From NCBI GenBank assembly GCA_020348985.1, contig CP070761.1, positions 1,075,713 through 1,139,712 on the forward strand: 64,000 nucleotides of DNA, written 5' to 3'. Below are positions 14,497 to 35,732 of this stretch, piece after piece. Under the pieces are notes generated by a model. It saw nothing but the letters and a program-made list of their open reading frames with translations, was not told where the DNA came from and ran no database searches. The DNA comes from Candidatus Thorarchaeota archaeon (lineage in GTDB: Archaea > Asgardarchaeota > Thorarchaeia > Thorarchaeales > Thorarchaeaceae). Every line of letters begins with the position of its first letter. The first letter of the stretch is position 1. The position numbers and the translations under genes were made by a program.

Positions 14497-14728
14497 TGTA
14501 TGGATCCTCAGTGGTCATTCTTACGGGCTAAGGCCGCACAGAGTTCAACTGTCGTCTCACACATCTTAATTGTTGTGCTAGGTCTTTGTTGTGAACTTTA
14601 ACCCTATTCTACAACGCGACGGCGCCTCATGCAAACCTTTCAGAAGGGTTATGAGGAACTATGTACCCATTTTGCCTGAAGTCAGGACTCTTATGAGTGC
14701 CATCAGACTGAGAAGGAGAATAGAAAAT

Positions 14729-16462: not shown

Positions 16463-16481
16463 TCTCAGCGCACAAGACTAT

Positions 16482-16517
16482 TGGGGGCTCGCGAACAGCC
16501 CCCATCTTTAGCTTTTT
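16482..16517 (+). terminator. Hairpin plus T-rich tract after the CoA ligase
   Basis: TGGGGGCT-cgcgaac-AGCCCCCA 8-bp stem followed by TCTTTAGCTTTTT. Confidence 0.6.
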
Positions 16518-16616
16518 GTTCATATTCCAAGTAACTAGTCGAGTCCCTGTCTTGTGACCCTGAAATGTGCCTTTGAGTTATAACTAGTCTAGGTCCCGGA
16601 AGACACCAGTCGAGAG

Positions 16617-18077: not shown

Positions 18078-18296
18078 AACATTTTCCAGAAACTGAAGTT
18101 CATGTGCGAGAAAGAACGGGCCCATTGAGGTCTAGCTATATCTAGGCCACCATGAACAATTAGGGCAGGTCAAAATTATGCGCTAAAATGTCGACTTATA
18201 TGCCTATGAACCAAGTGCATTCAACCACTCCAGTCTAACACGACTGCTTGGGTTTCAAAGTTGTTCTTGTGATTGAACTGGACCCGTGTACTGAAG

Positions 18297-19667
18297 ATGG
18301 CACTCCACAAAGTGAATTCACGCCGGATTCCTTCGCTTCTCCTTGTGCTTGCATTATTGTTTGCTTCAAGTCCAATCTCTGCAGATTCCAATCCAAATGC
18401 ATCATCAGTAGATTTCATCCAGCTGAAGGAAGAGCATTCGGCCTCTAATCTGAATCAGGATAGAGCATATTGGCCTACTTCAAGTTGGGCAACATCTACA
18501 CCTGAGGCTCAAGGGATGAGTTCGGAGCGGCTGGATTCTATGATTGATTTGATATACGCCGCGGACCTAAACATTGATGCAGTAATTGTAGTGCGAAATG
18601 GCATAATTGTGCTTGAGGAGTATCCTGACCCCAACTACGACGTCAGCACTCTTCATATGATTCAATCATGTACGAAACAGTTCACTTCAACCCTTATGGG
18701 AATCGCCATTGAAAATGGGTTCATCGAAAGCGTTGACGCGAGAGTCGTTGATTTCTTTTCCGACTGGGACATCGAGAATCTAGATGATAGGAAGAGAAAC
18801 ATAACTATCAGACACTTGCTTGAATGGACTGATGGACTAGATTGGCATGAACTAGACTATCCATACGATGATCCTCGAAACACACTTGGTCAGATGTGGG
18901 TCAGTGATAACGCAGTCAAGTACTGTCTAGACCGTCCGATGGTTAGAGACCCTGGGGAGCAATGGTACGTGAACTCAGGAACCATGATTATTGCAGGCGG
19001 AATAATAACTCGTGTGACAGGCTTGACTGTTCCAGAATTCGCGGAGGAGCATCTGTTTGGGTCCATAGGAATCGATTCCTATCACTGGTCAATGATTGGC
19101 GGAGGCAGCGCAGGTGGCTGGTATCACTCTGATGGAGGGCTTTATCTGACGCCCAGAGACATGGCCAGGTACGGATTCCTCATGTTGAACAACGGCACAT
19201 GGGACCAAGAACAGATTGTTTCACAACAATGGGTGGGTGATGCGACAAACCTGCAGGTTCAAACAACTTGGGGACAACCCTACTCAGGATTCGGTTATCA
19301 ATGGTACATTATGCCTTCACTGGGTGCCTATGCAGCGTTGGGCCATTATCAACAATCGATATTCGTAGTTCCTGAACACGATCTCGTTGTGGTGTTCACT
19401 GGGAATATCGCTGACGGGGACCCCTATTGGGACGCCGGCTTCCTAGAATACAACATCATTCGTGCGGTCACTGAATACAGACCCCCCGAAAGTATAGCAA
19501 CTACGGACATAGGCATTACCAATTCTACAACGACAAGTAGTGGTTACGATACTTCGGAACTGATAGCACTGCAAAATACTGTGTTTGTCCTTGTGGTTGC
19601 TGGTGTACTTGCTCTCCTGACATTTGCTGCTTCAGGGAGGATACTGACACGTAGGAATAGCCGCTAA
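18297..19667 (+). CDS. Secreted serine hydrolase (beta-lactamase class C family) with C-terminal TM anchor
   Basis: Signal peptide, SCTK (SxxK), ITIRHLL, YVN, LTPRDMARYG, Thr/Ser linker, TM then RRNSR. Confidence 0.88.
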   Translation: MALHKVNSRRIPSLLLVLALLFASSPISADSNPNASSVDFIQLKEEHSASNLNQDRAYWPTSSWATSTPEAQGMSSERLDSMIDLIYAADLNIDAVIVVRNGIIVLEEYPDPNYDVSTLHMIQSCTKQFTSTLMGIAIENGFIESVDARVVDFFSDWDIENLDDRKRNITIRHLLEWTDGLDWHELDYPYDDPRNTLGQMWVSDNAVKYCLDRPMVRDPGEQWYVNSGTMIIAGGIITRVTGLTVPEFAEEHLFGSIGIDSYHWSMIGGGSAGGWYHSDGGLYLTPRDMARYGFLMLNNGTWDQEQIVSQQWVGDATNLQVQTTWGQPYSGFGYQWYIMPSLGAYAALGHYQQSIFVVPEHDLVVVFTGNIADGDPYWDAGFLEYNIIRAVTEYRPPESIATTDIGITNSTTTSSGYDTSELIALQNTVFVLVVAGVLALLTFAASGRILTRRNSR

Positions 19668-19796
19668 GTATGGAATCTGGTGACTAGCAATTCTGTTCTG
19701 CAATTGTTCATCAATTTCATCCGGCCTTAACAAATATCAGTCACCTCTGCAATACTGGATAGCTAATCTATGCATGATTTGAAAGGAGACTAGAGG

Positions 19797-21566
19797 ATGA
19801 CAGAAGAGCTTTACTGGCAGGATGGGCCACATTGGCCCGAAACAGCAAGAAAGTCTTTGGACTATCCAGAGGAACCGCTCTTTGCGATATTGGACAGAGC
19901 CGCTGAGAAGAGTGGCGATTTGCCCCACACAGTCTTCATGGGCAAATCGAAAACTTTCAGAGAGGTAAGAGATGCAGCAGATAGAATTGCCAATTTCTTG
20001 GTAAAAAGGGGTGTGAAGCAGGATGATAGAGTTGCGATATTCCTGCCAAACGTTCCTCATTTTCCAGAAGTCTTCTTTGGATCGCTCAAGGCAGGAGCAA
20101 AGGTCGTTACATGTAATCCACTGTACAAGAAAGGAGAACTGAAGTACCAGTTAGATGACACTGATGCAGTTGCTATCTTTGTCTTGGATCATCCCACATT
20201 CACACCTACCTGCTATGAAGCAATCAAAGACACGAAGGTGGAGACTGTTGTTGTTTGCAGTGTAAAGCCGTGGCTTTCGAAGATTACGGCGTTCATAGGA
20301 GGTTTGATTGGAAAGGTTCCGAAAAGCCCCTATTATGAGGAAGACAAGACCTTCTTTTACGATGAGATTCTTGCCAACTATGAACCAGAAGTACCAACAT
20401 TGACAGTGGATCCACACGATACGGCCATCCTAATCTATACGGGCGGCACAACAGGGGTCCCCAAGGGAGCGGAGCTAACTCACTACAACCTGGCCTCCAA
20501 TCTTGTGCAGATTTCTGAGTGGGTGTATCTGAGAGCGGAAGACATTGCTGAGGATGCGGAGCCAGGAGGAGCCAGATACGGAAGAGAGGTCTATATTGGC
20601 GCCCTCCCGTGGTACCACTCCTACGGCTTGACCGTGACATTCTTGATGTCTGTATTCTTCGCCGGTAAGCTGGTTTGTATTCCAGATCCTAGATCCGGTA
20701 AACCCCCCTTGTCTGACCTCCTTAAGGAAATGGCCGACAACAAAGGGACTGTATTCAATTGTGTTCCTGCCCTGTACGCCGGTGTTGTCAATCATCCAGA
20801 CATCGCGAAATATGATCTTACTTCAATCAGCATTTGTAGTTCCGGAGCCGCTCCTCTACCACCATCCCTCGCTGAGGAATGGGAGAAGGTCACAGGAACC
20901 CTACTAATAGAGGGTTATGGCCTTACAGAGACCTCGCCAGTGACTCACACCAACCCAACAAACAAGGCCCACAGGAAATTCGGTTCCATAGGCCTTCCAC
21001 TCCCTGACACAATATGTAAGATTCTGGACATTGATACCGGAACTCAAGAGATGCCTATTGGAGAGACTGGTGAGATTGCACTGCATGGTCCGCAAGTGAT
21101 GAAAGGGTATTGGATGAAACCAGAAGAAACCGCAGCAGTCATGAGAGACATCGGCGGTAAGCGCTTCTTCCTTACGGGTGACATTGGACACATGGACGAA
21201 GAAGGTTATACGTACATCAGTGACCGGAAGAAACAGATGATAATTGTGGGCGGTCTCAAGGCCTACCCCCGAGAGATCGAAGACACGTACTTTGAACATC
21301 CGAAGGTGAAGATGGCTGCGGCCATTGGGATTCCGAGAGGGGATGACCCTGGGAATGAGTTCGTCAAAGCATTCATAGTTCTCAAGGACGGCGAGACAGC
21401 CACACCCGAAGAGTTCATCGAATGGGCAAGGGACAAGATGGCCGGGTACAAGCGACCCAGAGAGGTTGACATTGTGGACGAACTTCCGATGAGTCAAGTC
21501 GGAAAGGTACTAAGGCGAGTTCTGCGTGAAGAGGAACTCAAGAGGAGAGGAATAACAGACGCGTGA
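19797..21566 (+). CDS. Long-chain-fatty-acid--CoA ligase (AMP-binding), paralog 2
   Basis: YTGGTTGVPKG, EGYGLTETSP, TGD, GKVLRR; clearly paralogous to 14729-16462. Confidence 0.93.
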   Translation: MTEELYWQDGPHWPETARKSLDYPEEPLFAILDRAAEKSGDLPHTVFMGKSKTFREVRDAADRIANFLVKRGVKQDDRVAIFLPNVPHFPEVFFGSLKAGAKVVTCNPLYKKGELKYQLDDTDAVAIFVLDHPTFTPTCYEAIKDTKVETVVVCSVKPWLSKITAFIGGLIGKVPKSPYYEEDKTFFYDEILANYEPEVPTLTVDPHDTAILIYTGGTTGVPKGAELTHYNLASNLVQISEWVYLRAEDIAEDAEPGGARYGREVYIGALPWYHSYGLTVTFLMSVFFAGKLVCIPDPRSGKPPLSDLLKEMADNKGTVFNCVPALYAGVVNHPDIAKYDLTSISICSSGAAPLPPSLAEEWEKVTGTLLIEGYGLTETSPVTHTNPTNKAHRKFGSIGLPLPDTICKILDIDTGTQEMPIGETGEIALHGPQVMKGYWMKPEETAAVMRDIGGKRFFLTGDIGHMDEEGYTYISDRKKQMIIVGGLKAYPREIEDTYFEHPKVKMAAAIGIPRGDDPGNEFVKAFIVLKDGETATPEEFIEWARDKMAGYKRPREVDIVDELPMSQVGKVLRRVLREEELKRRGITDA

Positions 21567-23826: not shown

Positions 23827-25086
23827 ATGACTGACTATAAAGTCAAAGACATAGGATTGGCCGAAGAGGGCCGAAAGCTAATCGATTATGCCGAAAAGCA
23901 CATGCCTGTGTTGATGCATCTTAGGAAGAAATACGCCGAGACGAAACCGCTCAAGGGAATGAAGATCGCTGGATGTCTTCACGTCACAAAAGAGACTGCA
24001 GTTCTAGTGGAAACTCTGCGAGATGTTGGTGCCGAGGTGGCCTGGTCTGGCTGTAACCCGTTGTCAACGAATGACCATGTAGCTGCCGGACTTGCAGCAA
24101 ATGATGTCCCAGTCTTTGCTTGGCACAATCTGAATACAGAGGACTACTATTGGTGTATCGAGCAGACTCTGAAGACTGAGCCAACGCTCACTCTTGATGA
24201 CGGAGCAGATCTAATCTTCACGCTGCACAACAAACACCAGGAGCTGATTCCGAATCTCTACGGAGGCTCTGAGGAGACCACAACTGGCGTGATTCGAGTT
24301 CGAGCAATGGCCGATGATGGAGCACTGAAGTATCCAATCATGGCTGTGAATGATGCTGCAACCAAGCACCTGTTCGACAATGTGTACGGCACTGGACAGA
24401 GTGTATTTGATGGTGTAATGAGAGCATCAGCCATTTTGATAGCTGGAAAGACTGTTGTAATTGGCGGCTATGGATTCTGTGGACGCGGGATGGCTGAACG
24501 CGCAAGAGGCTTGGGAGCTAATGTAATCGTTACAGAGGTTGATCCCGTTCGCGGATTGCAGGCGAGAATGGACGGCTTCAGAGTAATGAAAATGAGTGAA
24601 GCAGCTCCAGAAGGAGACCTGTTCCTTACTGCAACCGGCATGAAGGATGTCATTACAGGCGAACACATGAAGGTCATGAAGGACGGTGCTATGTTTGGCA
24701 ATGCTGGTCACTACAATGTGGAAATCAATGAACCTGATTTGATTGAACTCAGCAAAGGTCCAAAGAAGAGGGTGCGTCATGCACTGGATGAGTACGAGCT
24801 TAAGGATGGACGACGACTCTATTTGCTGGGCGAAGGTCGATTGGTTAATCTGACCGCGGCGGAGGGACACCCAAGTGAAGTCATGGACCTATCCTTCGCA
24901 GGCCAACTGAATGCCATGATTTGGATGGCCAAGACTGGCAAGGATCTGGAACCGGCAGTATACGAATTCCCAAAGGAACTTGACATGCAGACTGCTCAGG
25001 CAAAGCTCGAAACCATGGGCATCAAAATCGACAAGTGGACTCCCCAACAAGAAGCCTATGCAAAGGCCTACGCTGAAGGAACATAG
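23827..25086 (+). CDS. ahcY: S-adenosylhomocysteine hydrolase
   Basis: GCLHVTKET, CNPLST, DDGAD, EETTTG, KHLFDNVYGTGQS, GYGFCGRG, GRLVNL..AEGHP. Confidence 0.98.
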   Translation: MTDYKVKDIGLAEEGRKLIDYAEKHMPVLMHLRKKYAETKPLKGMKIAGCLHVTKETAVLVETLRDVGAEVAWSGCNPLSTNDHVAAGLAANDVPVFAWHNLNTEDYYWCIEQTLKTEPTLTLDDGADLIFTLHNKHQELIPNLYGGSEETTTGVIRVRAMADDGALKYPIMAVNDAATKHLFDNVYGTGQSVFDGVMRASAILIAGKTVVIGGYGFCGRGMAERARGLGANVIVTEVDPVRGLQARMDGFRVMKMSEAAPEGDLFLTATGMKDVITGEHMKVMKDGAMFGNAGHYNVEINEPDLIELSKGPKKRVRHALDEYELKDGRRLYLLGEGRLVNLTAAEGHPSEVMDLSFAGQLNAMIWMAKTGKDLEPAVYEFPKELDMQTAQAKLETMGIKIDKWTPQQEAYAKAYAEGT

Positions 25087-25198: not shown

Positions 25199-26641
25199 AT
25201 GGCATTCGGCTCTTCAGAGAAACTGTCTCGGAAGAACATGTGGGGTTATGCATTTGGAGCAATCCCTACCGGACTTCTGGGCTTCGTTTTCACCTTCAAG
25301 TACATCGAGTTCTTCTTTGACGATCTGGCCTTGCTGCCAGCATACTTCGTCGTTGGACAGATCATTTACATGACAGTGAACTCCCTTAATGACCCGCTAT
25401 CGGGACAGCTTTCAGACCGCACTGACCGAGAGCGATGGGGAAGCAGGCGATTAATCTACATCAAATACGGTGGCCCAGTGTGGGCGCTCACCTTCATGCT
25501 AGTCTGGATTCCTTGGAGCCTCACTGACCAACTTGTCATCTTCATCCACTATGTGATAACGATTTGCGCATTTGACACAATGTACACACTAGTGATTCTT
25601 CTCTGGTTGGCATTGCTTCCTGAAATGACGATGGACATTGATGAACGAAACAAGGCCCAGTTCTTCGCGACCGTCTTGGGTACAGTTGTGGTCCTGCCGG
25701 CGTTTCTCATTATCGCAAATATCAGTCCCAATTCCGACGAGTTTCGGATGATCATGTTGGTCTTTGCAGTAATATCGACATTCTTCCTCTTTCTGACCGC
25801 CAGCATGTGTGAAGAGCGACCTGAGTTTCAGAGCGATGAAGTATACTCACTGAAAGAATCAATTCTGGCCACGTTCAGGTCCAATTCATTTCTTGTCTAC
25901 GCAGGCTTCTACTTCGCCCAGAATCTGCTCGGTAGCCTAGGGCTCAGCTATTTCTTCATCTACATAATGTTGCTAGAAGTGATATCTCCTGGGTTGAACA
26001 TCATTCTCCTGTTCTTCATAATCTACTTCATTGTAGGATATGGAGGGAACATCATAGCAATGCGGCTACGGCCAAGATGGGGCATGAGGGGAGTCATCTT
26101 GAAGTTTGGAGTAGTCCGGGTAATAGCGTCTCTTGCACTGTTCTTCATAATCTTGGTACCTTCATTGGAATGGGTGATCTGGTACGGACTCATTCTGACA
26201 ACTTTGGCTTCAGGGTATGGCATCTTCCACATACCAATGCAATACTTGGCAATAGACGAGGATGAGGTCTTACATGGTTCTAGAAGAGAAGGAATGTTCA
26301 TCGGAGTTATGGCGTTGTTGACGCGGCCGGGAACAAGCCTAGGACCCATAATAGCCACCTTCGTTCTAGCTACATTGGGATATATCCAGGGCGGTGGTGT
26401 AGAAGCACAACCGGCTTCGGCTTTCCTTGGAATCAAGATTCTGTGGCTTCTCGTCCCAGCACTAGTTGCCGCGTTAAGTCTCGTCTTCATATACTACTAT
26501 CCACTTCATGGTGAGCGTTTAGCAGAGATGCAAGAAAAGCTAAAAGAACTTCACAAGAAGAAGAGGACTGCCTTTCTGTCTGCAAAGGAAATCGCAACCG
26601 AGCTTGCAGAGAATACGGATGGGCCTCAAATGGAGGATTAG
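25199..26641 (+). CDS. MFS glycoside-pentoside-hexuronide (MelB/GPH) family sugar transporter
   Basis: NDPLSGQLSDRT...WGSRR, LLPEMT.DIDER, IDEDEV.HG.RREG, YYYPL. Confidence 0.9.
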   Translation: MAFGSSEKLSRKNMWGYAFGAIPTGLLGFVFTFKYIEFFFDDLALLPAYFVVGQIIYMTVNSLNDPLSGQLSDRTDRERWGSRRLIYIKYGGPVWALTFMLVWIPWSLTDQLVIFIHYVITICAFDTMYTLVILLWLALLPEMTMDIDERNKAQFFATVLGTVVVLPAFLIIANISPNSDEFRMIMLVFAVISTFFLFLTASMCEERPEFQSDEVYSLKESILATFRSNSFLVYAGFYFAQNLLGSLGLSYFFIYIMLLEVISPGLNIILLFFIIYFIVGYGGNIIAMRLRPRWGMRGVILKFGVVRVIASLALFFIILVPSLEWVIWYGLILTTLASGYGIFHIPMQYLAIDEDEVLHGSRREGMFIGVMALLTRPGTSLGPIIATFVLATLGYIQGGGVEAQPASAFLGIKILWLLVPALVAALSLVFIYYYPLHGERLAEMQEKLKELHKKKRTAFLSAKEIATELAENTDGPQMED

Positions 26642-27804
26642 TTGGGAACGTCTATGGGATAGTTGCCATACTTTTCACGGATTCTCATGACAGCCTCCCA
26701 TCTGTCGATGGCAATTGTAGGAATGATGCTGTGACCGCTACTGAAAATGTATCCTCCACCTGGTGCAAGTTCTCGGATTAGCTTCTTACTATATGTTTCA
26801 ATCTCTTGGATTGTGCCTGTGGCCAGCATAACTGGACTGATGTTACCAACGAAAGTGATTTTGTCACCATACTTCTCATGGAGCTTGAAGATGTCATATT
26901 CAGGGTTGGCTGTCGTGGGCTCGATGGGGTTCAATGCATCGATTCCACAGTTCACTATATCCTCAAAGATTAGTGATAGATCCCCATCAGAGTGAAGAAG
27001 AATCTTGGAGCCATGTTTGTGTGCCTCATCACAGATACGTTTTAGCCAAGGAAAGATGTAGGTGTGATAGTTTCGAGGACTCATGAATAGTCCATTCTTG
27101 AAGCCATAGTCATCCCAGATTAGAATAAGCTCGGCACCGTTCTCCCCAAGGATCTTCACCAATTCAAGTGCAAGATTCCCTTTGTCATCAAAGACTTTCT
27201 TTGCTTGCTTGGGTTTTGCTAAGATGCGTGAGAATACTTCGATTCCAAAAGGTTCCCAAGCTGGCTCGAACATCCCGCCAATGGCAGGCACGGATAAGAT
27301 TTCGTTGTTCATCTGTTCTTGGACTTGCTTTCCAGCCAGAAAAGCGGCAAGTCGCCTCTTCTCATGAGGGCTTGGTTGCTTCCATTTCTCGTAATCTTCA
27401 AAGCTCTTGAAGTGGCCTCCACGATAACCCAGAATCACTGTGCCATCCTCGTAGGAGTCAACCTTCATGACCCTCCCGAACTCATCTATGTAACCACCTG
27501 GGATGCCCTTCCGGTACGTATGGGTCACATAGCTGAGCGCAATGTCAATCTTCACGCGCCTTAGGAGCTCATATCCATCTACTAGCACTTTGACCAGCCA
27601 CTTCTGACTCGAGAACGCCAAGTTTGCAAGCCGATCCCTGCCCGGTAGACGTTTGATAGAATCATATCCATCCTTAAGTCCAGTACCTGGTTCGACCCCA
27701 TAATGCCTCATGATTGTGTTGTTTGTGAAAGCACTCTCAAAGGCAGGTACCCGGTCAGATTCTTCATGATTAAGTGCTTTCAGAACGCGTGTCGGAGCAT
27801 CCAT
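26638..27804 (-). CDS. UroD/MtaA superfamily methyltransferase-like protein (HxD...H type)
   Basis: RVLKALNHEESDRVP, DEFG, WDDYG...FMSP, LHSDG, DALNPIEP, APGGGYIFSSGHS. Confidence 0.9.
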   Translation of the reverse strand: MDAPTRVLKALNHEESDRVPAFESAFTNNTIMRHYGVEPGTGLKDGYDSIKRLPGRDRLANLAFSSQKWLVKVLVDGYELLRRVKIDIALSYVTHTYRKGIPGGYIDEFGRVMKVDSYEDGTVILGYRGGHFKSFEDYEKWKQPSPHEKRRLAAFLAGKQVQEQMNNEILSVPAIGGMFEPAWEPFGIEVFSRILAKPKQAKKVFDDKGNLALELVKILGENGAELILIWDDYGFKNGLFMSPRNYHTYIFPWLKRICDEAHKHGSKILLHSDGDLSLIFEDIVNCGIDALNPIEPTTANPEYDIFKLHEKYGDKITFVGNISPVMLATGTIQEIETYSKKLIRELAPGGGYIFSSGHSIIPTIAIDRWEAVMRIREKYGNYPIDVPN

Positions 27805-27809
27805 CGTGG

Positions 27810-28439
27810 CTATCCCTCCAGAAGTGCTCGGATTCTCCTGACTCCTTCGATTGCGTCTGCTCCGAAGTCATCCGCCCCCAGTTCCTTGGCCAGTTCCATG
27901 TTGAGTGGGGCTCCCCCTACGATTATCTTCACTCCGTCACGAAGTCCTGCTTCTTTGAGAGCTTGATCAACAACAGAAATCTCCCTCAACGTCATTGTTA
28001 GCAGGCAGCTCAGTGCAACTACCCTGGCACCGGCCTCTCGCACGGTCTCTACAATCTTTTCGGAGGGACAGTCCATTCCAAGGTCAATGATTTCCAGACC
28101 AGATGACAAGAGCATAGTGATGAGCAGATTCTTACCGATGTCATGATTGTCGCCCCTAACAGTAGCAACAACAATCCTATCCTTCACTTCCGACTCATCC
28201 GATTTCAGGTGGGGTTCAAGGACTGCAAGAGCATCCTTCACTGTCTCGCCCGCTAAGACCAGCTCAGCAAGGAAGTACTCAGATGACTCGTAACGACGTC
28301 CAACTTCGTCGAGACCGCTTGTCAATGCATTGAGAATCGCTCCGGGGGCAGCTCCTGCGTCAAGTTCTGCCTTCACTGCTTCACCTATGTTGTCAATATC
28401 GAGTTCAATCATCTTTCTACTGATGTCTTCGAGAGTCAC
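27810..28439 (-). CDS. Corrinoid (B12-binding) methyl-carrier protein, MtaC/MttC-like
   Basis: Cap domain GLDEVGRRYE..EYFLAEL, GDNHDIGKN (DxHxxG), SCLLT, VGGAP; GTG start after AGGAGG. Confidence 0.95.
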   Translation of the reverse strand: MTLEDISRKMIELDIDNIGEAVKAELDAGAAPGAILNALTSGLDEVGRRYESSEYFLAELVLAGETVKDALAVLEPHLKSDESEVKDRIVVATVRGDNHDIGKNLLITMLLSSGLEIIDLGMDCPSEKIVETVREAGARVVALSCLLTMTLREISVVDQALKEAGLRDGVKIIVGGAPLNMELAKELGADDFGADAIEGVRRIRALLEG

Positions 28440-28585
28440 CTTCTCTCCTCCTAGAACCATTTCCGCGGAGTTCACTCTGCTGGCAGGACAATTGGGAAAC
28501 AGTGTAATATTACTTCCTTCACCTAGTCAACTCGAAGAAGATTAATCGCAGATTGTCTCTGGAATTGGGAAGGGAGAATGCACAG

Positions 28586-31324
28586 ATGCCTGAGAAACCG
28601 TTTGGTTCTGGATATTTCGGCGAATGGATAGGAGATGAGTTTGGACTGCCGGCCTACCGCTATACATGTGATCAGGTACGAGACTCGAAAGCGGCTACTC
28701 AGGTCAACGAGGAATGGAGGCCAAGCACCGATCACCTTCACCAAGTTGGAAATGACAGGTTTGTGGCAGTCGCTTCGAACTACGGACATGTGCAGCTAAG
28801 ACAGGACGAAGGTAGTCCGAAGTTTCTGAACGACTACGATCCTGCACGATCTCAGTTTGGAGGCGGCATTGGGTACTTAACAGATGGAGAAGTAGTGGTT
28901 AGCACCTTCTATAACGACCAAGTTGAATCATTCGACCGTGTTTTTGGAATCGGATACTTCAGAAAAACTGTCAAAGCACATGGACTCGTCGTTGATCAGA
29001 TTGTCTTTGCCCCTTTTGGCGACGACCCACTTGTGATATCACAGGTCACGATTAAGAATGAACGGAGCCAAAGCGTGGACCTCAAATGGGTTGAGTATTG
29101 GGGATGTCAGCTCTATCAGTTTTCATTTAGATCCTTCATAATGTCGTTTGCCCAAGACAAGTCAACATCTGAGATCCGAAGAGAGTTTAGCCGTAGGTTT
29201 GATCACAAGTTTGAGCTTTTTGCCAACTGCAGGGGCCTCATAAACTCAAAACGTTTCAAGGGGCGAACTTTGTCTGATAGGGCAACCTGGAAAGGAGTGA
29301 ATGCATACCTTGCTACAAAAGGAAAGCATCTTACTGGAGGTCCTGTAAAACCACCAATCAAAGAAACTGTCTTGGAAGACGAGTCGCCTCCAACTACATT
29401 TCTTGTCTCGCTCGACGCTCCAGCTATAGGTGTGAGTACAAATGCTATCGAATTCTTCGGGGCCGGCGGGGTGGAGTCCCCTGATCGGATAAAGGAGACT
29501 CTGCCGCTCGAGATTACGAGTCACAAATCCGAAACCGGGATGTTTTTGCAGCGTGGAATGAGTCTAGGACCCGGAGAAGAAAAGACCATCTACTTCGCCT
29601 ACGGGTACTTGCCTGAGAGTTATGAGCTGGAATCACTAGTCACCAAGTACGAGCAAAATCTTGTCAACTTGCTGGCAGAATCGTGCAACAGATGGAAGAG
29701 GAGTAGAATTCACCTTCTTATTGATGGTGAGGACTGGGTTGAGCGTGAACTAGCATGGCACAGCTATTACCTTAGAAGCAATCTCACGTTTGATGCATTC
29801 TTCAATGAACACATATTGTCTCAGGGCCATTTGTATCAATATCTCATTGGAATCCAGGCGGCCGCCAGGGATCCACTCCAGCACGCCCTACCGTTTGTCT
29901 TCACGGACCCTGACATAGTGAAGAACATTATTCGCTATACACTGAAGACAGTTAGTCCAGAGGGAGAAATCCCGTACGGAATTGTTGGTAGCGGTTTGTA
30001 TATGCCCTCACCTTGGAAGCCTAGCGATCAGCAGCTATGGCTCTTCTGGTTAGTAAGTGAATATGTGCTTGCCAATCGAGATACTGACTTTCTTGATGAG
30101 ATCCTTCCCACATATCCAATATACGGACGAAAAGCAGGTAAAGCGTCCGTTCGAGAACTACTCACACGTTGTTTTCGGTATTTTGTAGACAAGATAGGAA
30201 CTGGCAAGCATGGACTCATGCGGCTAGCAAGGGGCGACTGGAATGACGTGGTTGTAATCGGACACGTAAAGGATGAGCAGCGAGACGAGGTCGCAGAGGT
30301 AGGAGAGAGCATCTTGAACTCCAGCATGGCTACCTATGTGCTAGATCACTATTCCCGACTCCTTGGATTCGTTGGTGATGACCTGCTGGCCAAGGAGTCC
30401 CTGGAGTTTGCTGATGGCCAACGTGATGCGGTAACCAAGCAGTGGACAGGAAACTGGTTTAGACGTGCTTGGCTTGGCAGCGAAATTGGCTGGGTAGGTA
30501 CTGATATCATGTGGCTGGAACCACAACCCTGGTCAATAATCGGCAATGCGGCGGATGATGAACAAAAAGGGACTCTATTGCAGGTCATTGGTGAAAAGGC
30601 TCAGCGTTTCTCAAAGCATGGCGCCACGATTCTCTCAACTCCTCTAGATCAGGTGCCAGGAGGTCCAGGGGTTGGTACAAACGCAGGAGTCTGGCCCTCA
30701 ATAAATGGCACACTTGTCTGGGCATTGGCCCTAATGGATGGCTCTAAGGCATGGGAAGAGTGGAAGAGAAACACACTAGCATTTCATGCAGATAGCTATC
30801 CTGAAGTTTGGTACGGAATATGGAGTGGGCCTGATACATACAACTCGGAGTTCTCAGATTCTCCAGGTCAGACAATCCAGATTGGTGAGAGAACTGGAGT
30901 AAGAGACGCTGCAGAGGACAGCGGCCTGGAAGACGAAGGATTCCTAGGTGTGGGTTGGACCGATTTCCCTGTATTCAATATGCACCCACATGCGTGGCCC
31001 CTGTATACGACAGCTAAGATGCTCGGAATCGAGTTCAACATCGAAGGCCTTGAAATCTCTCCGTCCCTGCCACACCAAAAATACGAATTCAATTCACCGC
31101 TCTTGGATTTCGAGAAATCTGAAACAGGGTATAAGGGGAAATATGCGCCAATGGTCCGAGGAACTTGGAAAGTTGTCATCAACCTCGGAGAAGAAGAGAC
31201 TGGACGGCTCTCCACAGCAGTTGTCAATGGGATGGAGCAGGAAATCATAAAGGAAGAAGACCGGGTGATCATCACCGGAACGAGTGCACCAGAAGAACCG
31301 CTCACATGGGAGCTAAAATACTGA
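28586..31324 (+). CDS. GH94-like glycoside phosphorylase/hydrolase with (alpha/alpha)6 barrel
   Basis: HQVGNDR N-terminal domain, ARDPLQ, SDQQLWL, GKHGL.RL..GDWND, GESILN, W.G.WF.RAW; no signal peptide. Confidence 0.72.
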   Translation: MPEKPFGSGYFGEWIGDEFGLPAYRYTCDQVRDSKAATQVNEEWRPSTDHLHQVGNDRFVAVASNYGHVQLRQDEGSPKFLNDYDPARSQFGGGIGYLTDGEVVVSTFYNDQVESFDRVFGIGYFRKTVKAHGLVVDQIVFAPFGDDPLVISQVTIKNERSQSVDLKWVEYWGCQLYQFSFRSFIMSFAQDKSTSEIRREFSRRFDHKFELFANCRGLINSKRFKGRTLSDRATWKGVNAYLATKGKHLTGGPVKPPIKETVLEDESPPTTFLVSLDAPAIGVSTNAIEFFGAGGVESPDRIKETLPLEITSHKSETGMFLQRGMSLGPGEEKTIYFAYGYLPESYELESLVTKYEQNLVNLLAESCNRWKRSRIHLLIDGEDWVERELAWHSYYLRSNLTFDAFFNEHILSQGHLYQYLIGIQAAARDPLQHALPFVFTDPDIVKNIIRYTLKTVSPEGEIPYGIVGSGLYMPSPWKPSDQQLWLFWLVSEYVLANRDTDFLDEILPTYPIYGRKAGKASVRELLTRCFRYFVDKIGTGKHGLMRLARGDWNDVVVIGHVKDEQRDEVAEVGESILNSSMATYVLDHYSRLLGFVGDDLLAKESLEFADGQRDAVTKQWTGNWFRRAWLGSEIGWVGTDIMWLEPQPWSIIGNAADDEQKGTLLQVIGEKAQRFSKHGATILSTPLDQVPGGPGVGTNAGVWPSINGTLVWALALMDGSKAWEEWKRNTLAFHADSYPEVWYGIWSGPDTYNSEFSDSPGQTIQIGERTGVRDAAEDSGLEDEGFLGVGWTDFPVFNMHPHAWPLYTTAKMLGIEFNIEGLEISPSLPHQKYEFNSPLLDFEKSETGYKGKYAPMVRGTWKVVINLGEEETGRLSTAVVNGMEQEIIKEEDRVIITGTSAPEEPLTWELKY

Positions 31325-31332
31325 ATCGCGGG

Positions 31333-32388
31333 ATGAAAATGGACTCTCGGGAGTTGACTCTCACAGCCATCGAAGGAATCCCCGATAGAGTTCCATTCAA
31401 TCCGTTCATAATGCATCTTGCCGCTGCTGTCGATGGAATTGACTACTCAAATGTATACTGCAAGAATGCCGCTGTTCTTGCCGAAGCTCAGATGAGATTC
31501 GCAGACAGCTTTGGGATTGACCACGTTCATGTGTCAACTGATGCCTATAGGGAGGCAAGTGCTTGGGGAGTTGAAGTGGATTTCTCCGGCCATACACCAG
31601 TGCCCAAGAAACATCTCACCATGGATGACTTTGACTCAGTAGAAGAGCCGGATCTGAATTCTGCTATTCGCATTCAGAATCGAATCGAAGCCGTTCGGTT
31701 GCTAAGTGGGAAAGTAGGATCCAAGCAATGTGTCGTCGGCTGGATCGAGGCCCCATTCGCCGAGATTTGCTGCCTTTTTGGCTTGATGGAGGTCCTGAAG
31801 ATGGCACGATACGAGGATTGGAATGAACGAGTGTCCAGTCTGATTTCTCGCATTATGTCAATTCAGAATGAGTTCGCTGAAATGCAGATTGAGGCAGGTG
31901 CCGATGTCATTGGCGCTGGTGATTCCGCGGTCTCTCAGATTGGACCAAAGCGATTCGAAGAAGCGTGTCTCGAATCGACACAAGGATTGTTCTCTGAGAT
32001 CAGAAAACGGGTTCCAGTGCTATACCATGTGTGTGGGAACAGCTCGGCAATTGATAAGGATGGACGAGATATGCTCAAACTGGTAGCTGATTCGGGGTCT
32101 TCAATCTTGGACATTGATTATCAAGTCGATCTTCATGCGGCTAAGCAGAAAGTAGGGCAAAGCGTGTGCCTCCGAGGAAACACAAATACCGCTTTGCTAG
32201 GAGACCGTGCCTACTCGTCTGCAGAGGTCACTAGTAAAATCGTCGAATGTGTTGAGGCAGGAAAGCCAGGAGGAAGATACATGTATTCAGCTGGCTGCGA
32301 GTGGCCATGGGAACCACTTGAGCTAGCAACAAATAACCTCAGGATTGCGAAGAAGCTGGTTGATAGAGAGGGGGTTTACTTGAGATGA
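31333..32388 (+). CDS. MtaA/CmuA-type methylcobamide methyltransferase (UroD superfamily, HxC...C type)
   Basis: PDRVP, EASAWG, EAPFAE, AGAD.I..GDS, LYHVCGN, RGN, SAGCE. Confidence 0.88.
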   Translation: MKMDSRELTLTAIEGIPDRVPFNPFIMHLAAAVDGIDYSNVYCKNAAVLAEAQMRFADSFGIDHVHVSTDAYREASAWGVEVDFSGHTPVPKKHLTMDDFDSVEEPDLNSAIRIQNRIEAVRLLSGKVGSKQCVVGWIEAPFAEICCLFGLMEVLKMARYEDWNERVSSLISRIMSIQNEFAEMQIEAGADVIGAGDSAVSQIGPKRFEEACLESTQGLFSEIRKRVPVLYHVCGNSSAIDKDGRDMLKLVADSGSSILDIDYQVDLHAAKQKVGQSVCLRGNTNTALLGDRAYSSAEVTSKIVECVEAGKPGGRYMYSAGCEWPWEPLELATNNLRIAKKLVDREGVYLR

Positions 32389-33557
32389 ACTCAAGAGAAC
32401 GTGTAATGGCAGCGCTAAATCATATACAACCAGACATGGTTCCACTTGACCTCGGTGGCAACCAATCGGGAATTCACATCATTGCCTACAAGCGTCTTTT
32501 GGAGTTTCTTGAAATAGAAGAAACTGAAGTCTGTTACCTCGACTTCATTCAACAGGCAGCGATGCCGTGTGAGGAGCTGTTAGAGCGTTTTGACATAGAT
32601 GTCAGGTGGTTGCGTCCGTCGTCCTCGATAATGCCGGAAAGCTTCGTACCGGATGTGGAGGGTGAACACCAAGGAATCTGGGACCAGTTTGGTGTGTTTT
32701 GGGGAAACAGTGCGGAAAAGGATCTTGAGGATGTTCTCTACTATGACCCGGTCATTCACCCCCTTGAAGATATGAAAACTGAGCAAGAGATAAGAAATTA
32801 TGAATGGCCCAATGGAACCGACAAGACTCCAATGAAGGGATTGAGGAAACAGGCAGAATTTCTTCGAGAGAAGACTGACTATGCTATTGCCACGCCCCCA
32901 CTCGGATGCATCTACGAGTACACAACATTTCTTTTCGGGTTCAGTACTGCGTTGAAACACTTGGTGAGGAATCCGAAGCTCATCGTCGCAACTATGGAAG
33001 AGCTTGAGAAGTACTGGACAGATTATGCGACGACCTTCTTGGCAGAGATCAAGTTTGGAGACGAGTACTATGTTGATATCGTATCAAACAATGGAGACCT
33101 ATCAGAACAGTCAGGCCCCATAATGAGCCCGAAGAGAATCTACGAACCGATAATCAAACCCATTGAACGCAAGTTTTCTGAGACACTTCACGGAATCGCT
33201 GATGTGAAGATCAACTATCATAGCTGTGGTTCGGTCCCCCACTTCATCCCCCACTTCTCTGAGATAGGATATGATGCTCTCAACCCGATTCAAGTTGGTG
33301 CCAACGACATGGAGCCCTGCAGCCTCAAGAAACGGTTCGGCAAGATGATTGCGTTCTGGGGAGGTTTGTGTGACACTCAGAGTACACTGCCGTTTGGGAC
33401 TCCAGAAGAAGTGAGAGAAGAGGTGAGACGTAACATGGCGTGCTTCAAACCAGGGGGAGGGTATATCGCTTCAAACATCCACAACATCACGGCCGAGGTG
33501 CCACCCGAAAACATCGTTGCTATGTTTGATGCGGCTCGAGATAGCAGGCACTACTAG
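32385..33557 (+). CDS. UroD/MtaA superfamily methyltransferase-like protein (HxC...H type)
   Basis: MNSRERVMAALNH.QPD.VP.DLGG, DQFG, YHSCGS, LNPIQ, FWGG, PGGGYI...IHNI. Confidence 0.9.
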   Translation: MNSRERVMAALNHIQPDMVPLDLGGNQSGIHIIAYKRLLEFLEIEETEVCYLDFIQQAAMPCEELLERFDIDVRWLRPSSSIMPESFVPDVEGEHQGIWDQFGVFWGNSAEKDLEDVLYYDPVIHPLEDMKTEQEIRNYEWPNGTDKTPMKGLRKQAEFLREKTDYAIATPPLGCIYEYTTFLFGFSTALKHLVRNPKLIVATMEELEKYWTDYATTFLAEIKFGDEYYVDIVSNNGDLSEQSGPIMSPKRIYEPIIKPIERKFSETLHGIADVKINYHSCGSVPHFIPHFSEIGYDALNPIQVGANDMEPCSLKKRFGKMIAFWGGLCDTQSTLPFGTPEEVREEVRRNMACFKPGGGYIASNIHNITAEVPPENIVAMFDAARDSRHY

Positions 33558-33576: not shown

Positions 33577-34110
33577 TCATTGCTTGTTGAGCTTCAGTTT
33601 GAAGACCTTCTCGAATTTATCCAGCTTCGGCTTGATAACGTATCTGCAGTATGCTTGGTCTGGATTCTGCCTGAAGTAGTTCTGATGATAGTCTTCGGCT
33701 CGGTAGAAGACTGTGTACGGAGCAATTTCCGTTACGACCGGATTGCTCCAGACTCCGCTTTCATCAGCTCTGGCCTTGGCCGCTTCAGCCGCTTTCTTCT
33801 GCTCATCGCTGTGATAGAAAATGATTGAGCGGTACTGTGTGCCCACGTCATTTCCTTGACGATTGAGTGTAGTTGGATCGTGGGTTTCGAAGAAGACTTC
33901 CAAGAGGACTTCATAGGAGATTTGCTCTGGATTAAATGAAATCTGACAGACCTCAGCATGACCCGTGTTTCCTGTGGTTACTTGTCCATATGTAGGATTC
34001 TCAGCGGTGCCACCAGCATATCCTGATACAACAGAGGTGACTCCTTTGAGCTGCTGAAAGACGGCCTCAACACACCAGAAACAGCCGCCTCCGAATGTTG
34101 CTATTTCCAT
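33577..34110 (-). CDS. msrA: Peptide methionine sulfoxide reductase A
   Basis: GGCFWC, TGHAE, HDPTTLNRQGND.GTQYRS, AEDYHQNY, YC. Confidence 0.97.
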   Translation of the reverse strand: MEIATFGGGCFWCVEAVFQQLKGVTSVVSGYAGGTAENPTYGQVTTGNTGHAEVCQISFNPEQISYEVLLEVFFETHDPTTLNRQGNDVGTQYRSIIFYHSDEQKKAAEAAKARADESGVWSNPVVTEIAPYTVFYRAEDYHQNYFRQNPDQAYCRYVIKPKLDKFEKVFKLKLNKQ

Positions 34111-34178
34111 GATTTGAGAATCAACATTTCTAGTAATCAATAGTTAGGTAGTAGGAGCTTTTCCACGTGTGGCCTTTG

Positions 34179-35732
34179 CTAGACAGCACCTCTTCTTTTC
34201 GTAATAACAATAGCAACGATGAGAAAAGATACGAATCCCGCAATTGTGAGCGGTAGAAGCTCATCTGGCAGAATCCATGAGCTATTTCCAGGGTAGAAGG
34301 GAGGCGTCGGAGTGAATGTGCCTGCTGTGCCGTTTGGATAGTGATCGATTGCCCCTTCTCCGGGTATGACATAGACAGCACCTGGTACGAGATCGTCCCA
34401 GTAGTTACCGCACGAAACGCCATCGTCCCATGAGCTGCCTGTGCCCCAATCAAATGCGTTGTAGTCGATGTTCCCTCCGAAGGTGTTGTAGTAGATTTCG
34501 TGACCCCATGCGCTTTTTACCTGCAGACCAATACCACCATTCTCTAGAATCTCGTTGCCAATGATTCTGCACTCATAACCGTTGATAATCAGAATACCAT
34601 TTCCTGTGTTATCAGAAACCAAGCTGTCCAGAAGTTGAATTCTCCTACTGCCGTTAAGAAGACGAATTCCCGCCCAGTTTTGGGCGATGACTGCATCAGT
34701 AAGCGTGCAATTGCTTGAATTGCGCACCTGCACTCCATAATGGTTCTGGCTGGATGTAAAGCTTGAGATGTGGCAGTGACCGCTATAGGTCATTAGAACG
34801 CCCACGCTAGCACGATTGAACTCACCACCTTCGATGGACACGTTTCTGCAGTCAAAGAGAATCAGTTGTCCATAATCAGTACCGTCCAGCCAGGCATCTT
34901 CTAGATTATTGAAGTAACCGAGATTCTTCCCATTGACAGTGCAGTTTTCCACTGTGGCATTGTAATCGTACTTCTCAAGACTATCAAAGAACAGACCATT
35001 GTCGAGCAAAGTGTTGTTGATGATTGTGCTGTCCCACGATTCGAAGAGTCCGACCCCCCAAGTGAAATTGGAGATAGTATTGTTGTGCAGAATTATTGAT
35101 CCTGACTCACTTACATGAACTCCATTTCCTCCACCGTCTTGACGAGACCGCATAACATTAGACTCCAATTGACAATTGACTGAATCGAAGACTGAAACTC
35201 CACCACCTTCAATATGATTCCGTGAGACTAAGCAGTAGCTACTGGCCTCCAAGATTATTGGGTCCCAAGAATCTCGAATCTCACATCTCGTTATCCTGCA
35301 ATTCACAGATGCATCAAGGATGATACCGATATCAAGAGAAGAGAATGTGCAATTCTCGACTCTGCCGTTTCGTACCATTTGGAAAGAGACTCCGAATGAG
35401 TTGTTTTCCGGACTGTCTCTTGAAAACGTACAGTCTCTAATCACGAAATAGGAGACCGTTTCGATGATTGTGATGGCCGTGCCACTTGTTGAGAATTCGA
35501 GATTTGAGATCACATACGGATCATCTCCAGTGCCAGAACCTGGAAATCCCAAGTCAGTGAAATTGGAGTCATCTATTATCAGGATTGGATTATCTGACAC
35601 ACGGATGAGTGCAGCAGAGAAGAGCTTCTCTTCAAAAGGTTGCTTGGGTTGCTTTGATTCTCCGGGAATGCACACGAAAGACAACAGAAGCAACAACACA
35701 GCAAAACAGAACCCCGCTCTACCGCAATTCAC
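34179..35732 (-). CDS. NosD-like right-handed parallel beta-helix surface protein with C-terminal TM anchor
   Basis: Signal peptide, GFPGSGT..DPYVI, GI.L...S..C.I..N repeats, GNYWDD, TM then KRR. Confidence 0.88.
   Translation of the reverse strand: MNCGRAGFCFAVLLLLLSFVCIPGESKQPKQPFEEKLFSAALIRVSDNPILIIDDSNFTDLGFPGSGTGDDPYVISNLEFSTSGTAITIIETVSYFVIRDCTFSRDSPENNSFGVSFQMVRNGRVENCTFSSLDIGIILDASVNCRITRCEIRDSWDPIILEASSYCLVSRNHIEGGGVSVFDSVNCQLESNVMRSRQDGGGNGVHVSESGSIILHNNTISNFTWGVGLFESWDSTIINNTLLDNGLFFDSLEKYDYNATVENCTVNGKNLGYFNNLEDAWLDGTDYGQLILFDCRNVSIEGGEFNRASVGVLMTYSGHCHISSFTSSQNHYGVQVRNSSNCTLTDAVIAQNWAGIRLLNGSRRIQLLDSLVSDNTGNGILIINGYECRIIGNEILENGGIGLQVKSAWGHEIYYNTFGGNIDYNAFDWGTGSSWDDGVSCGNYWDDLVPGAVYVIPGEGAIDHYPNGTAGTFTPTPPFYPGNSSWILPDELLPLTIAGFVSFLIVAIVITKRRGAV

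Follow-up and report, generated by a model that had tools for sequence, protein, structure and literature searches.

Corrinoid-dependent O-demethylation is known in archaea from MtoABCD, the characterized system through which Methermicoccus shengliensis and Archaeoglobus fulgidus act on methoxy-aromatic compounds. Methyl ethers are also carried by sugars of algal and plant cell walls and of sediments, including 6-O-methylgalactose, 4-O-methylglucuronate, and the 2-O-methylfucose and 2-O-methylxylose of pectin. For these sugars, a P450 6-O-methyl-D-galactose demethylase has been reported from marine bacteria, an oxygen-dependent monooxygenase that releases formaldehyde (PMC6292453, PMC10033563); it was the only enzymatic sugar O-demethylation described in the literature that we searched, in which we found no corrinoid-dependent sugar demethylation, no partnership between glycoside hydrolase family 94 (GH94) and UroD proteins, and no relevant work on fucoidan, sulfatases and UroD. 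Proteins with the UroD fold have been described as the substrate:corrinoid methyltransferases (MT1) of O-demethylases, with MtoB listed among them, and of chloromethane dehalogenation (PMC13222342). In this work, we analyzed a stretch of 64,000 nucleotides from the genome of a Candidatus Thorarchaeota archaeon (assembly GCA_020348985.1, contig CP070761.1, positions 1,075,713 to 1,139,712), hereafter the window, which holds a gene cluster encoding a GPH-like transporter, three UroD-like proteins (designated UroD-A, UroD-B and UroD-C), a corrinoid (B12) carrier and a GH94-like enzyme.

An initial annotation of this DNA, made from the sequence alone, had read the cluster as a system for the import, cleavage and demethylation of methylated glycosides, and had stated that no characterized archaeal pathway of this kind was known; the statement holds for sugars, for which none was found in the literature searched, but not for methoxy-aromatics, on which the archaeal Mto O-demethylase acts. 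Our results lend good support to a module in which B12-dependent methyl transfer is coupled to the catabolism of glycosides, and an O-methyl sugar is plausible as the methyl donor. Taken as a whole, a catabolic module joining glycoside uptake and cleavage to corrinoid-dependent methyl transfer from an O-methyl sugar has, in our judgement, about an even chance of being correct. The demethylation of methylated glycosides was retained on account of the linkage between sugar and methyltransferase genes, the gene fusions, and the accessory genes found elsewhere in the genome, and it was corrected in three points, namely the neighbourhood of ahcY, the significance of the lack of an MtaB-type enzyme, and the existence of a characterized corrinoid O-demethylase in archaea.

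Conservation and linkage of the gene cluster

The cluster is organized in two divergent units, corrinoid/UroD-A and GH94-like/UroD-B/UroD-C, separated by a spacer that is presumed to be a shared promoter region (Table 1). All the genes named in the initial annotation (GPH transporter, UroD-like methyltransferases, corrinoid protein, GH94-like enzyme and ahcY) were recovered at their positions in the list of open reading frames (ORFs) and in the Pfam and NCBIfam scans; likewise, the two tight junctions that it had described are present in the sequence, with 8 nt separating the GH94-like stop codon from UroD-B, and UroD-B and UroD-C overlapping in ATGA. A 5-nt gap lies between the corrinoid gene and UroD-A. 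The Asgard genome to which the window belongs is a single contig of 3.16 Mb, and three of the six URO-D matches of the whole genome fall inside this locus, a density far above chance.

In order to compare the cluster across genomes, 80 genomic loci with a GH94-like homolog at 50% identity or more were sampled, the window proteins were mapped onto them, and the neighbouring ORFs were clustered; these loci are non-independent samples, involving at least four UroD subfamilies, as resolved in a tree, and many distinct arrangements. At least 10 loci, distributed over several Asgard lineages, show identical gene order, with 58-84% protein identity. The full set (GPH/UroD-A/corrinoid/GH94-like/UroD-B/UroD-C), with order and orientation kept, was found in L001-L008 and L043, its hosts being Thorarchaeota, Hermodarchaeota and other genomes labelled as Promethearchaeota, and the best homologs of the GH94-like protein belong to Thorarchaeota and Hermodarchaeota. 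The complete Atabeyarchaeum chromosome (L060) keeps the corrinoid, GH94-like, UroD-B and UroD-C genes, with neither GPH nor UroD-A within 10 kb; the cluster is not discussed in the Atabeyarchaeia paper. Rearranged or partial sets were found among Asgard archaea in Helarchaeota (L007), and among bacteria in Thermodesulfobacteriota (L009), Syntrophomonadaceae (L073), Anaerolineales (L011), an unclassified bacterium (L032) and one Acidobacteriaceae genome (L079). Further, in loci of the Loki type, the companions of the GH94-like gene are a UroD gene of a fourth subfamily, whose motif is HCCGK, along with GPH transporter and sulfatase genes. The same Loki-type set of GPH, sulfatase, GH94-like and HCCGK-type UroD genes was seen on a contig labelled Candidatus Nanopelagicaceae, Actinomycetota (L031); the UroD of this contig nests inside a Promethearchaeota clade, and the contig is probably mis-binned.

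In 29 of the 80 loci, the GH94-like gene has a UroD-family gene directly beside it or fused to it, and in 34 there is one within 10 kb. At least four UroD subfamilies were found in the tree beside the GH94-like gene, UroD-C being the most widely distributed there among the three window paralogs. Two single-chain proteins join GH94-like, URO-D and SCP2 domains, one of them from a metagenome (P0114) and the other from a 5.4-Mb Chloroflexia contig, on which it is a continuous ORF of 1451 aa (P0118, in L023), and they tie the glycoside enzyme to a UroD-fold protein. Furthermore, a protein 38% identical to UroD-C (P0146) is a fusion of URO-D with B12-binding_2 and B12-binding, thus tying the UroD-C family to the corrinoid cofactor; among the matches listed, no fused form of UroD-C longer than 684 aa was found, which is weak evidence, as the search was crowded. 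The initial annotation had named, as the finding that would speak against it, a lack of linkage between sugar genes and methyltransferases in other genomes, and such linkage was found, through Asgard synteny, in some anaerobic bacteria and in the fusions. The gene set is not a chance neighbourhood.

In four close relatives, a regulator of 471 aa lies directly after the UroD-C ortholog (Table 1), combining a TrmB domain (sugar-specific helix-turn-helix) with a MEDS domain (methanogen/methylotroph DcmR-type sensory); in the window's genome no ortholog of it was found, only matches to the TrmB N-terminal part.

UroD paralogs, their partners and the rest of the pathway

Each of the UroD paralogs constitutes an ortholog group of its own, with its own conserved metal motif. 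All UroD-A orthologs display HSDG...SGHS (ligand set H/D/H), UroD-B orthologs display HxCG...GCEWP, with HVCG in the window protein (H/C/C, MtaA-like), and UroD-C is conserved as H[SC]CG...N[IV]HN (H/C/H). In a profile alignment to MtaA (Protein Data Bank, PDB, entry 4ay7), the motifs of the paralogs fall on the segments 'LHICGN' and 'PGCG', which we take to be the zinc ligands; 'YHVCGN' of UroD-B aligns with 'LHICGN', and the motif residues of UroD-A align with the H-x-C...C of 4ay7. The best PDB matches of UroD-A were MtaA and the MT1 enzyme CdmB, and the AlphaFold2 (AF2) model of UroD-C (predicted local distance difference test, pLDDT, 95) had MtaA 4ay7 as its nearest structure, followed by UroD and then MetE. 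As for the family models, UroD-A, UroD-B and UroD-C scored 51.6, 73.1 and 31.4 against the NCBIfam MtaA/MtbA equivalogs (NF040654, NF041608; cut-off 400), and 62.8, 68.8 and 29.4 against TIGR01463 (cut-off 235); against the HemE model TIGR01464 (cut-off 303), UroD-A gave 32.9 bits, UroD-B 74.3 bits and UroD-C no hit. On these sequence criteria, the three paralogs are classed as new subfamilies of the superfamily, outside the named MtaA, MtbA, MtaA/CmuA and HemE families.

With an MtaA-type H/C/C set placed on the presumed zinc-ligand segments, UroD-B resembles a methylcorrinoid:acceptor methyltransferase (MT2) of the MtaA type, and is a candidate for that function, in which it would activate a thiol or a similar nucleophile. 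The ligand sets of UroD-A and UroD-C are harder and may be read as Lewis-acid sites for a leaving alkoxide, which makes both proteins MT1 candidates: UroD-A, of UroD fold and abutting the carrier, as a putative substrate:corrinoid methyltransferase, and UroD-C as a putative second one. We infer that every paralog is a methyltransferase, as well as the MT1 and MT2 assignments and the direction of transfer. The initial annotation had remarked that no substrate enzyme of the MtaB, MttB, MtbB or MtmB type is present; there is indeed no MtaB homolog at the locus, but this does not amount to a gap, because UroD-fold MT1 enzymes are established (PMC13222342).

The corrinoid carrier is composed of a cap domain and a B12 domain in which the DxHxxG motif reads GDNHDIG. 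It is closest to the MtbC, MtgC and pyl_corrinoid family and scores under every equivalog cut-off; its orthologs, with 62-71% identity, have the same location in relatives, and its gene abuts UroD-A in every Thor-type locus. The expectation that a corrinoid activator and a pterin methyltransferase would be encoded elsewhere was borne out, as the genome contains a single RACo/RamA-type activase (Table 1), surrounded by an MtmB-like/corrinoid/MtrH/aldehyde:ferredoxin oxidoreductase (AFOR) cluster, together with four MtrH homologs and one Pterin_bind protein. CdhC is also encoded elsewhere in the genome, and a Wood-Ljungdahl sink for methyl groups is available in it; McrA was looked for in this genome and not found, which makes coenzyme M an unlikely acceptor. 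The cluster around the activase represents a second corrinoid system, whose MtmB-like protein (459 aa) has no in-frame stop.

The GH94-like enzyme matched two Pfam domains above their cut-offs, with 83.9 bits for the catalytic domain and 33.1 bits for the supersandwich domain; it had no match in the NCBIfam scan, and more than 1500 homologs. Its AF2 model (predicted template modelling score, pTM, 0.84) contains some low-confidence loops, and the best folds retrieved with Foldseek were the GH94 cellobiose, chitobiose, cellobionic-acid, cellodextrin and laminaribiose phosphorylases, with a template modelling (TM) score of ~0.63 and 15-16% identity. The invariant catalytic-acid motif DWND (D551-W-N-D554) corresponds in the alignment to RADWND of 2cqs/3afj and to GDWCD of 4zle. 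At the aligned position that presumably corresponds to the phosphate-binding H666 of the Cellvibrio gilvus cellobiose phosphorylase, all 20 aligned family members have an invariant Ser (S705); thus, the enzyme may act as a phosphorylase or as a hydrolase. Identity between archaeal and bacterial members exceeds 50%. The protein probably constitutes a new family or subfamily of the GH94 clan, and it is probably cytoplasmic, as the initial annotation had it, since the consensus start of the family has no hydrophobic leader. A complex prediction for residues 305-912 of this protein with UroD-A yielded no verdict (score 0.00). A second family of GH94-like paralogs, ~32-36% identical to the window protein, was observed in many Asgard genomes (e.g., G012:C1:2287993-2290515 and G158:C64:34361-36850).

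The GPH-like transporter reached 144.9 bits against MFS_2, above the Pfam cut-off, and 108.9 bits against TIGR00792 gph, for which the cut-off is 231.35; the NCBIfam models for gph, the glucuronide transporter and YagG all remained under cut-off. Its orthologs (67-81% identity) keep the same position in L001, L002, L004, L005, L008 and L043, and the protein is presumed to be a cation:glycoside symporter working as an importer.

Table 1. Coordinates of the cluster, its neighbours and related features (window positions, unless a genome or locus is named)
Feature	Position	Strand	Basis or remark
ahcY	23827-25086	+	ORF list, Pfam/NCBIfam scans
GPH-like MFS_2 transporter	25199-26641	+	Pfam MFS_2 E 3.6e-42, full model
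UroD-A	26638-27804	-	Pfam URO-D E 2e-28
Corrinoid (B12) carrier, MtbC/MtgC/MtaC-like	27810-28475	-	B12-binding_2 + B12-binding
Divergent intergenic spacer	28476-28585		~110 bp
GH94-like enzyme, 912 aa	28586-31324	+	Glyco_hydro_94 E 1e-23; GH94 supersandwich E 5e-8
UroD-B	31333-32388	+	Pfam URO-D E 6e-45
UroD-C	32385-33557	+	Pfam URO-D E 2e-16
msrA and 517-aa NosD-like parallel beta-helix protein	33577-35732	-	After the cluster
MFS_1 transporter and beta-lactamase-family gene between two AMP-binding acyl-CoA-synthetase-like genes	14591-21566		Unrelated
RACo/RamA-type activase	G000:C1:1568043-1569665		Fer2 + Raco_middle + RACo_C_ter; ~460 kb from the locus
Second corrinoid system: MtmB-like, corrinoid, MtrH homolog, activase, AFOR	G000:C1:1566773-1574624 (L137:2774-10625)		
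TrmB-MEDS regulator	L004:14626-16041		Also in L001, L003, L006

With respect to the genes flanking the cluster, the initial annotation was right that ahcY is adjacent, but it is not a conserved neighbour: it was found beside the cluster only here and in the closest relative (L001), and was rejected as a part of the system on this ground. The msrA gene was rejected likewise, as it is not conserved beside the cluster in relatives. The DNA sequencing runs holding this stretch are sediment metagenomes, and no RNA run was among those listed.

Substrate context, proposed route and rival explanations

A HMMER scan for UroD-C homologs yielded 625 clusters at 50% identity with E < 1e-30, and the surroundings of several members bear on the substrate. 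Protein P0123, 44% identical to UroD-C, is located in a polysaccharide-utilisation-like locus (L081:1-17173 and L082) that contains 3-4 URO-D genes, along with a GH106 rhamnosidase, two rhaM genes, four sulfatases, a GH29 fucosidase, GH95 and GH43, a context suggesting that sulfated fucose/rhamnose glycans are demethylated in the course of their breakdown. P0150 is preceded by a LacI regulator and a CUT2-type sugar ABC transporter; P0193 is surrounded by a second URO-D gene, a sugar ABC permease, KduI/IolB, AP_endonuc_2 and a zinc alcohol dehydrogenase; and the context of P0274 was uninformative. In Bacillota, 30 of 301 genomes contain a UroD-C homolog at E <= 1e-30. Pfam domains were tallied for 140 neighbouring ORFs from 20 Bacillota UroD-C-like loci (L117-L136), the counts being 9 for Peripla_BP_4; 7 each for ABC_tran and Peripla_BP_1; 5 each for AFOR and FGGY_N; 4 each for DctM, DctP and BPD_transp_2; and 3 each for KduI, DctQ and LacI. 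As far as gene context indicates, UroD-C neighbourhoods point consistently to carbohydrate-type rather than aromatic substrates. AFOR, which recurs near UroD-C-like genes in this tally, is also found beside the MtmB-like cluster of the window's genome (L137:8790-10625).

In the route that we propose, the GPH-like symporter would import a methylated oligosaccharide or glycoside, and the cytoplasmic GH94-clan enzyme would split its glycosidic bond. UroD-A, UroD-C or both, as metal-assisted MT1 enzymes, would then transfer the sugar O-methyl group to the Co(I) corrinoid protein, and UroD-B would pass it from CH3-Co(III) to an acceptor, either a thiol or, as with MtoA, tetrahydromethanopterin (H4MPT), after which the methyl group would enter the Wood-Ljungdahl pathway. 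The RamA/RACo-type activase encoded 460 kb away would re-reduce oxidised corrinoid, and the demethylated sugar would join central metabolism. As reportedly found by Sauer and Thauer in 1997 (cited in PMC13222342), MtaB transfers methyl groups from methanol to a corrinoid in a zinc-dependent manner, Co(I) cleaving an aliphatic C-O bond with Lewis-acid help; the same chemistry is thus plausible for a sugar methyl ether. The wider proposal, an oxygen-independent cobamide route that strips O-methyl groups from sugars in Asgard archaea and several anaerobic bacteria, by means of new UroD-fold subfamilies and a GH94-clan partner, and supplies the Wood-Ljungdahl pathway with the methyl groups, is put forward tentatively, at somewhat less than an even chance.

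Several observations weigh against sugar demethylation by a corrinoid system. Only 15 of the 80 GH94-like loci include a corrinoid gene at a distance of 10 kb or less, the Loki-type loci have no local corrinoid gene, and corrinoid homologs were found in just 4-5 of the 20 Bacillota UroD-C-like loci. Neither an activase nor a pterin methyltransferase is encoded at the locus itself. All three UroD paralogs score far under the MtaA/MtbA equivalog cut-offs, and they are only weakly similar to CdmB (E ~1e-6), the sole solved MT1. The distribution is also patchy: of the 301 Asgard genomes searched, 65 were found to contain the GH94-like gene, with this one counted among them, and the gene was not found in the other two genomes of its genus; hence, the cluster behaves as an accessory module. 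Finally, a UroD-family gene is adjacent to the GH94-like gene in none of the 32 Acidobacteriota loci, and one genome of this kind (G304) has no MtaC-sized corrinoid protein.

The Acidobacteriota loci, of which just one (L079) shows UroD-family and corrinoid genes within 10 kb, imply that the GH94-like enzyme has a function of its own that does not depend on the methyl-transfer module; the latter is an add-on to the GH94-like enzyme, seen in anaerobes. Genes for SDR, SIS, ROK kinase and sugar MFS proteins are common in these loci, a MetE-like protein is encoded in 10 of the 32, and an MBL-fold protein in about a third. In Terriglobia, a set of MBL-fold, MetE-like, SDR, SIS, ROK and sugar MFS genes was observed (L040:12757-18722; also L045 and L067, and partly L046, L048, L051, L061 and L066), in which the MetE-like (Meth_synt_2) protein keeps an intact H-x-C...C motif and no corrinoid protein is encoded. 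This MetE-like neighbour was considered as a UroD-family partner and rejected, as hhalign gave a probability of 0.3% between the UroD-C family and the MetE-like family; the link of the UroD-C model to MetE structures came from the fold search only (E ~1e-6).

Four other explanations were weighed. The same corrinoid machinery might take its methyl group from an aryl methyl ether that forms part of a glycoside, as in methoxylated phenolic glycosides or lignin-carbohydrate fragments, in which case the locus would be a glycoside-fed system similar to Mto, Odm or Mtv. GPH transporters are known as a family to carry glycosides with varied aglycones, the sediments from which the stretch was recovered are a habitat rich in plant detritus, and the characterized UroD-fold O-demethylase MT1 enzymes all act on methoxy-aromatics (PMC13222342). 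However, UroD-C relatives are found beside sulfatases, a fucosidase, a rhamnosidase, monosaccharide ABC transporters, FGGY and KduI/IolB rather than aromatic-ring genes, and CdmB, which its authors placed near the O-demethylases (PMC13222342), is less similar to the paralogs than MtaA is. Adding to this, GH94-clan enzymes are recognized for sugar-sugar beta-linkages and not for aryl glycosides, and we hold an aryl donor to be unlikely. A donor that is sugar-like yet bears no glycan O-methyl ether (a sugar derivative methylated on S or N, an inositol with a methyl group, or methanol set free locally) appears slightly less probable still: corrinoid systems as a family handle S-, N- and O-methyl donors, the KduI/IolB, AP_endonuc_2 and alcohol dehydrogenase genes beside UroD-C homologs are typical of inositol or uronate catabolism, and metal sites of three kinds suggest two or more donors or acceptors; but the tight coupling and fusion to a glycoside-cleaving enzyme, like the loci with sulfatases and glycoside hydrolases, point to a glycosidic substrate, and ahcY is no conserved neighbour.

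The two other explanations concern the UroD-like proteins themselves. That they are metal-dependent decarboxylases or other sugar-acid-modifying enzymes, the Thor-type corrinoid protein serving just one of them or an unrelated reaction, would fit with most GH94-like/UroD-like pairs having no nearby corrinoid gene, with the ability of the UroD fold to support decarboxylation, as seen among the PDB neighbours, and with GPH and TRAP transporters and KduI, which suggest uronate-type substrates. True UroD does not have the H-x-C/D metal motif of the methyltransferases; conversely, all the subfamilies found here keep it, and the hemE scores are far under the cut-off. Moreover, a UroD-C homolog is fused to B12-binding domains, UroD-A and the corrinoid gene are directly adjacent in all Thor-type loci, and we regard this explanation as improbable. 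The lowest probability of the four was given to a synthetic or methionine/thiol role, according to which the carrier and UroD-B would form a split methylcobamide:homocysteine/thiol methyltransferase, with a regulatory or coincidental link to glycosides. In its favour, UroD-B has a thiol-activating His/Cys/Cys site, the homocysteine-forming ahcY adjoins the cluster in this genome and in L001, and Terriglobia loci encode a MetE-like protein whose zinc motif is intact. Against it, ahcY is no conserved neighbour of the cluster and three UroD paralogs exceed the needs of a methionine synthase; further, catabolism is indicated by the importer, by the glycoside-cleaving enzyme and by the TrmB-MEDS regulator, and the fusions between GH94-like and UroD proteins are hard to attribute to coincidence.

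If the reading as sugar demethylation is correct, a cobamide route would explain how anaerobes clear blocking methyl groups, and O-methyl sugars would constitute a new substrate class for corrinoid methyltransferases and an unrecognised source of one-carbon units from algal and plant glycans in sediments, with a methylotrophic input to acetyl-CoA synthesis in Asgard archaea. The proteins of the locus that could be tested are few, namely three UroD paralogs, a single carrier and a single glycoside enzyme; furthermore, a large uncharacterised family of the GH94 clan has been identified.

Comparison with described systems

The three-component corrinoid methyltransferase system is already known; what is probably new at this locus is the set of methyltransferase subfamilies, the likely substrate class and the enzyme partner. 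Regarding the last of these, the GH94 phosphorylases (e.g., 2cqs, 3qde, 8bou and 4zle) share with the locus enzyme the multi-domain fold, the Pfam domains and DWND, and differ from it in that identity is 15-16%, the phosphate-binding His is replaced by an invariant Ser, and the family described here is linked or fused to UroD-fold proteins; we know of no such linkage or fusion for GH94.

Among the methyltransferase systems, archaeal Mto resembles the locus in comprising a corrinoid carrier, a UroD-fold MT1 (MtoB) and an MtaA-like MT2 (MtoA) that feeds H4MPT, and in needing a RamA-type activase. Conversely, Mto acts on methoxy-aromatics, with no transporter or glycoside enzyme as partner, and the locus differs in having three UroD paralogs with new metal-ligand sets and an activase encoded elsewhere. 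In the methanol system MtaABC, it is MtaA (PDB 4ay7) to which UroD-A, UroD-B and UroD-C come closest in sequence or structure, and UroD-B keeps the H-x-C...C motif of MtaA; in contrast to that system, the locus has no MtaB homolog, its paralogs are far under the MtaA/MtbA cut-offs, and no McrA was found in the genome. The Odm, Vdm and Mtv systems and CdmBCA (PDB 9rui; PMC13222342) are likewise built from an MT1 of UroD fold, a corrinoid protein, an MT2 and an activating enzyme, with CdmB among the best PDB sequence matches of UroD-A; nevertheless, their MT2 is pterin-binding, of the AcsE/MetH type, whereas the candidate MT2 of the locus is MtaA-like, and CdmB has no metal, whereas the window paralogs keep metal motifs and are only weakly similar to it (E ~1e-6). 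Lastly, the P450 sugar demethylases share with the proposed function the enzymatic O-demethylation of a sugar within a polysaccharide-degradation locus, by an unrelated fold and chemistry, and the system encoded here would be their anaerobic, methyl-conserving counterpart.

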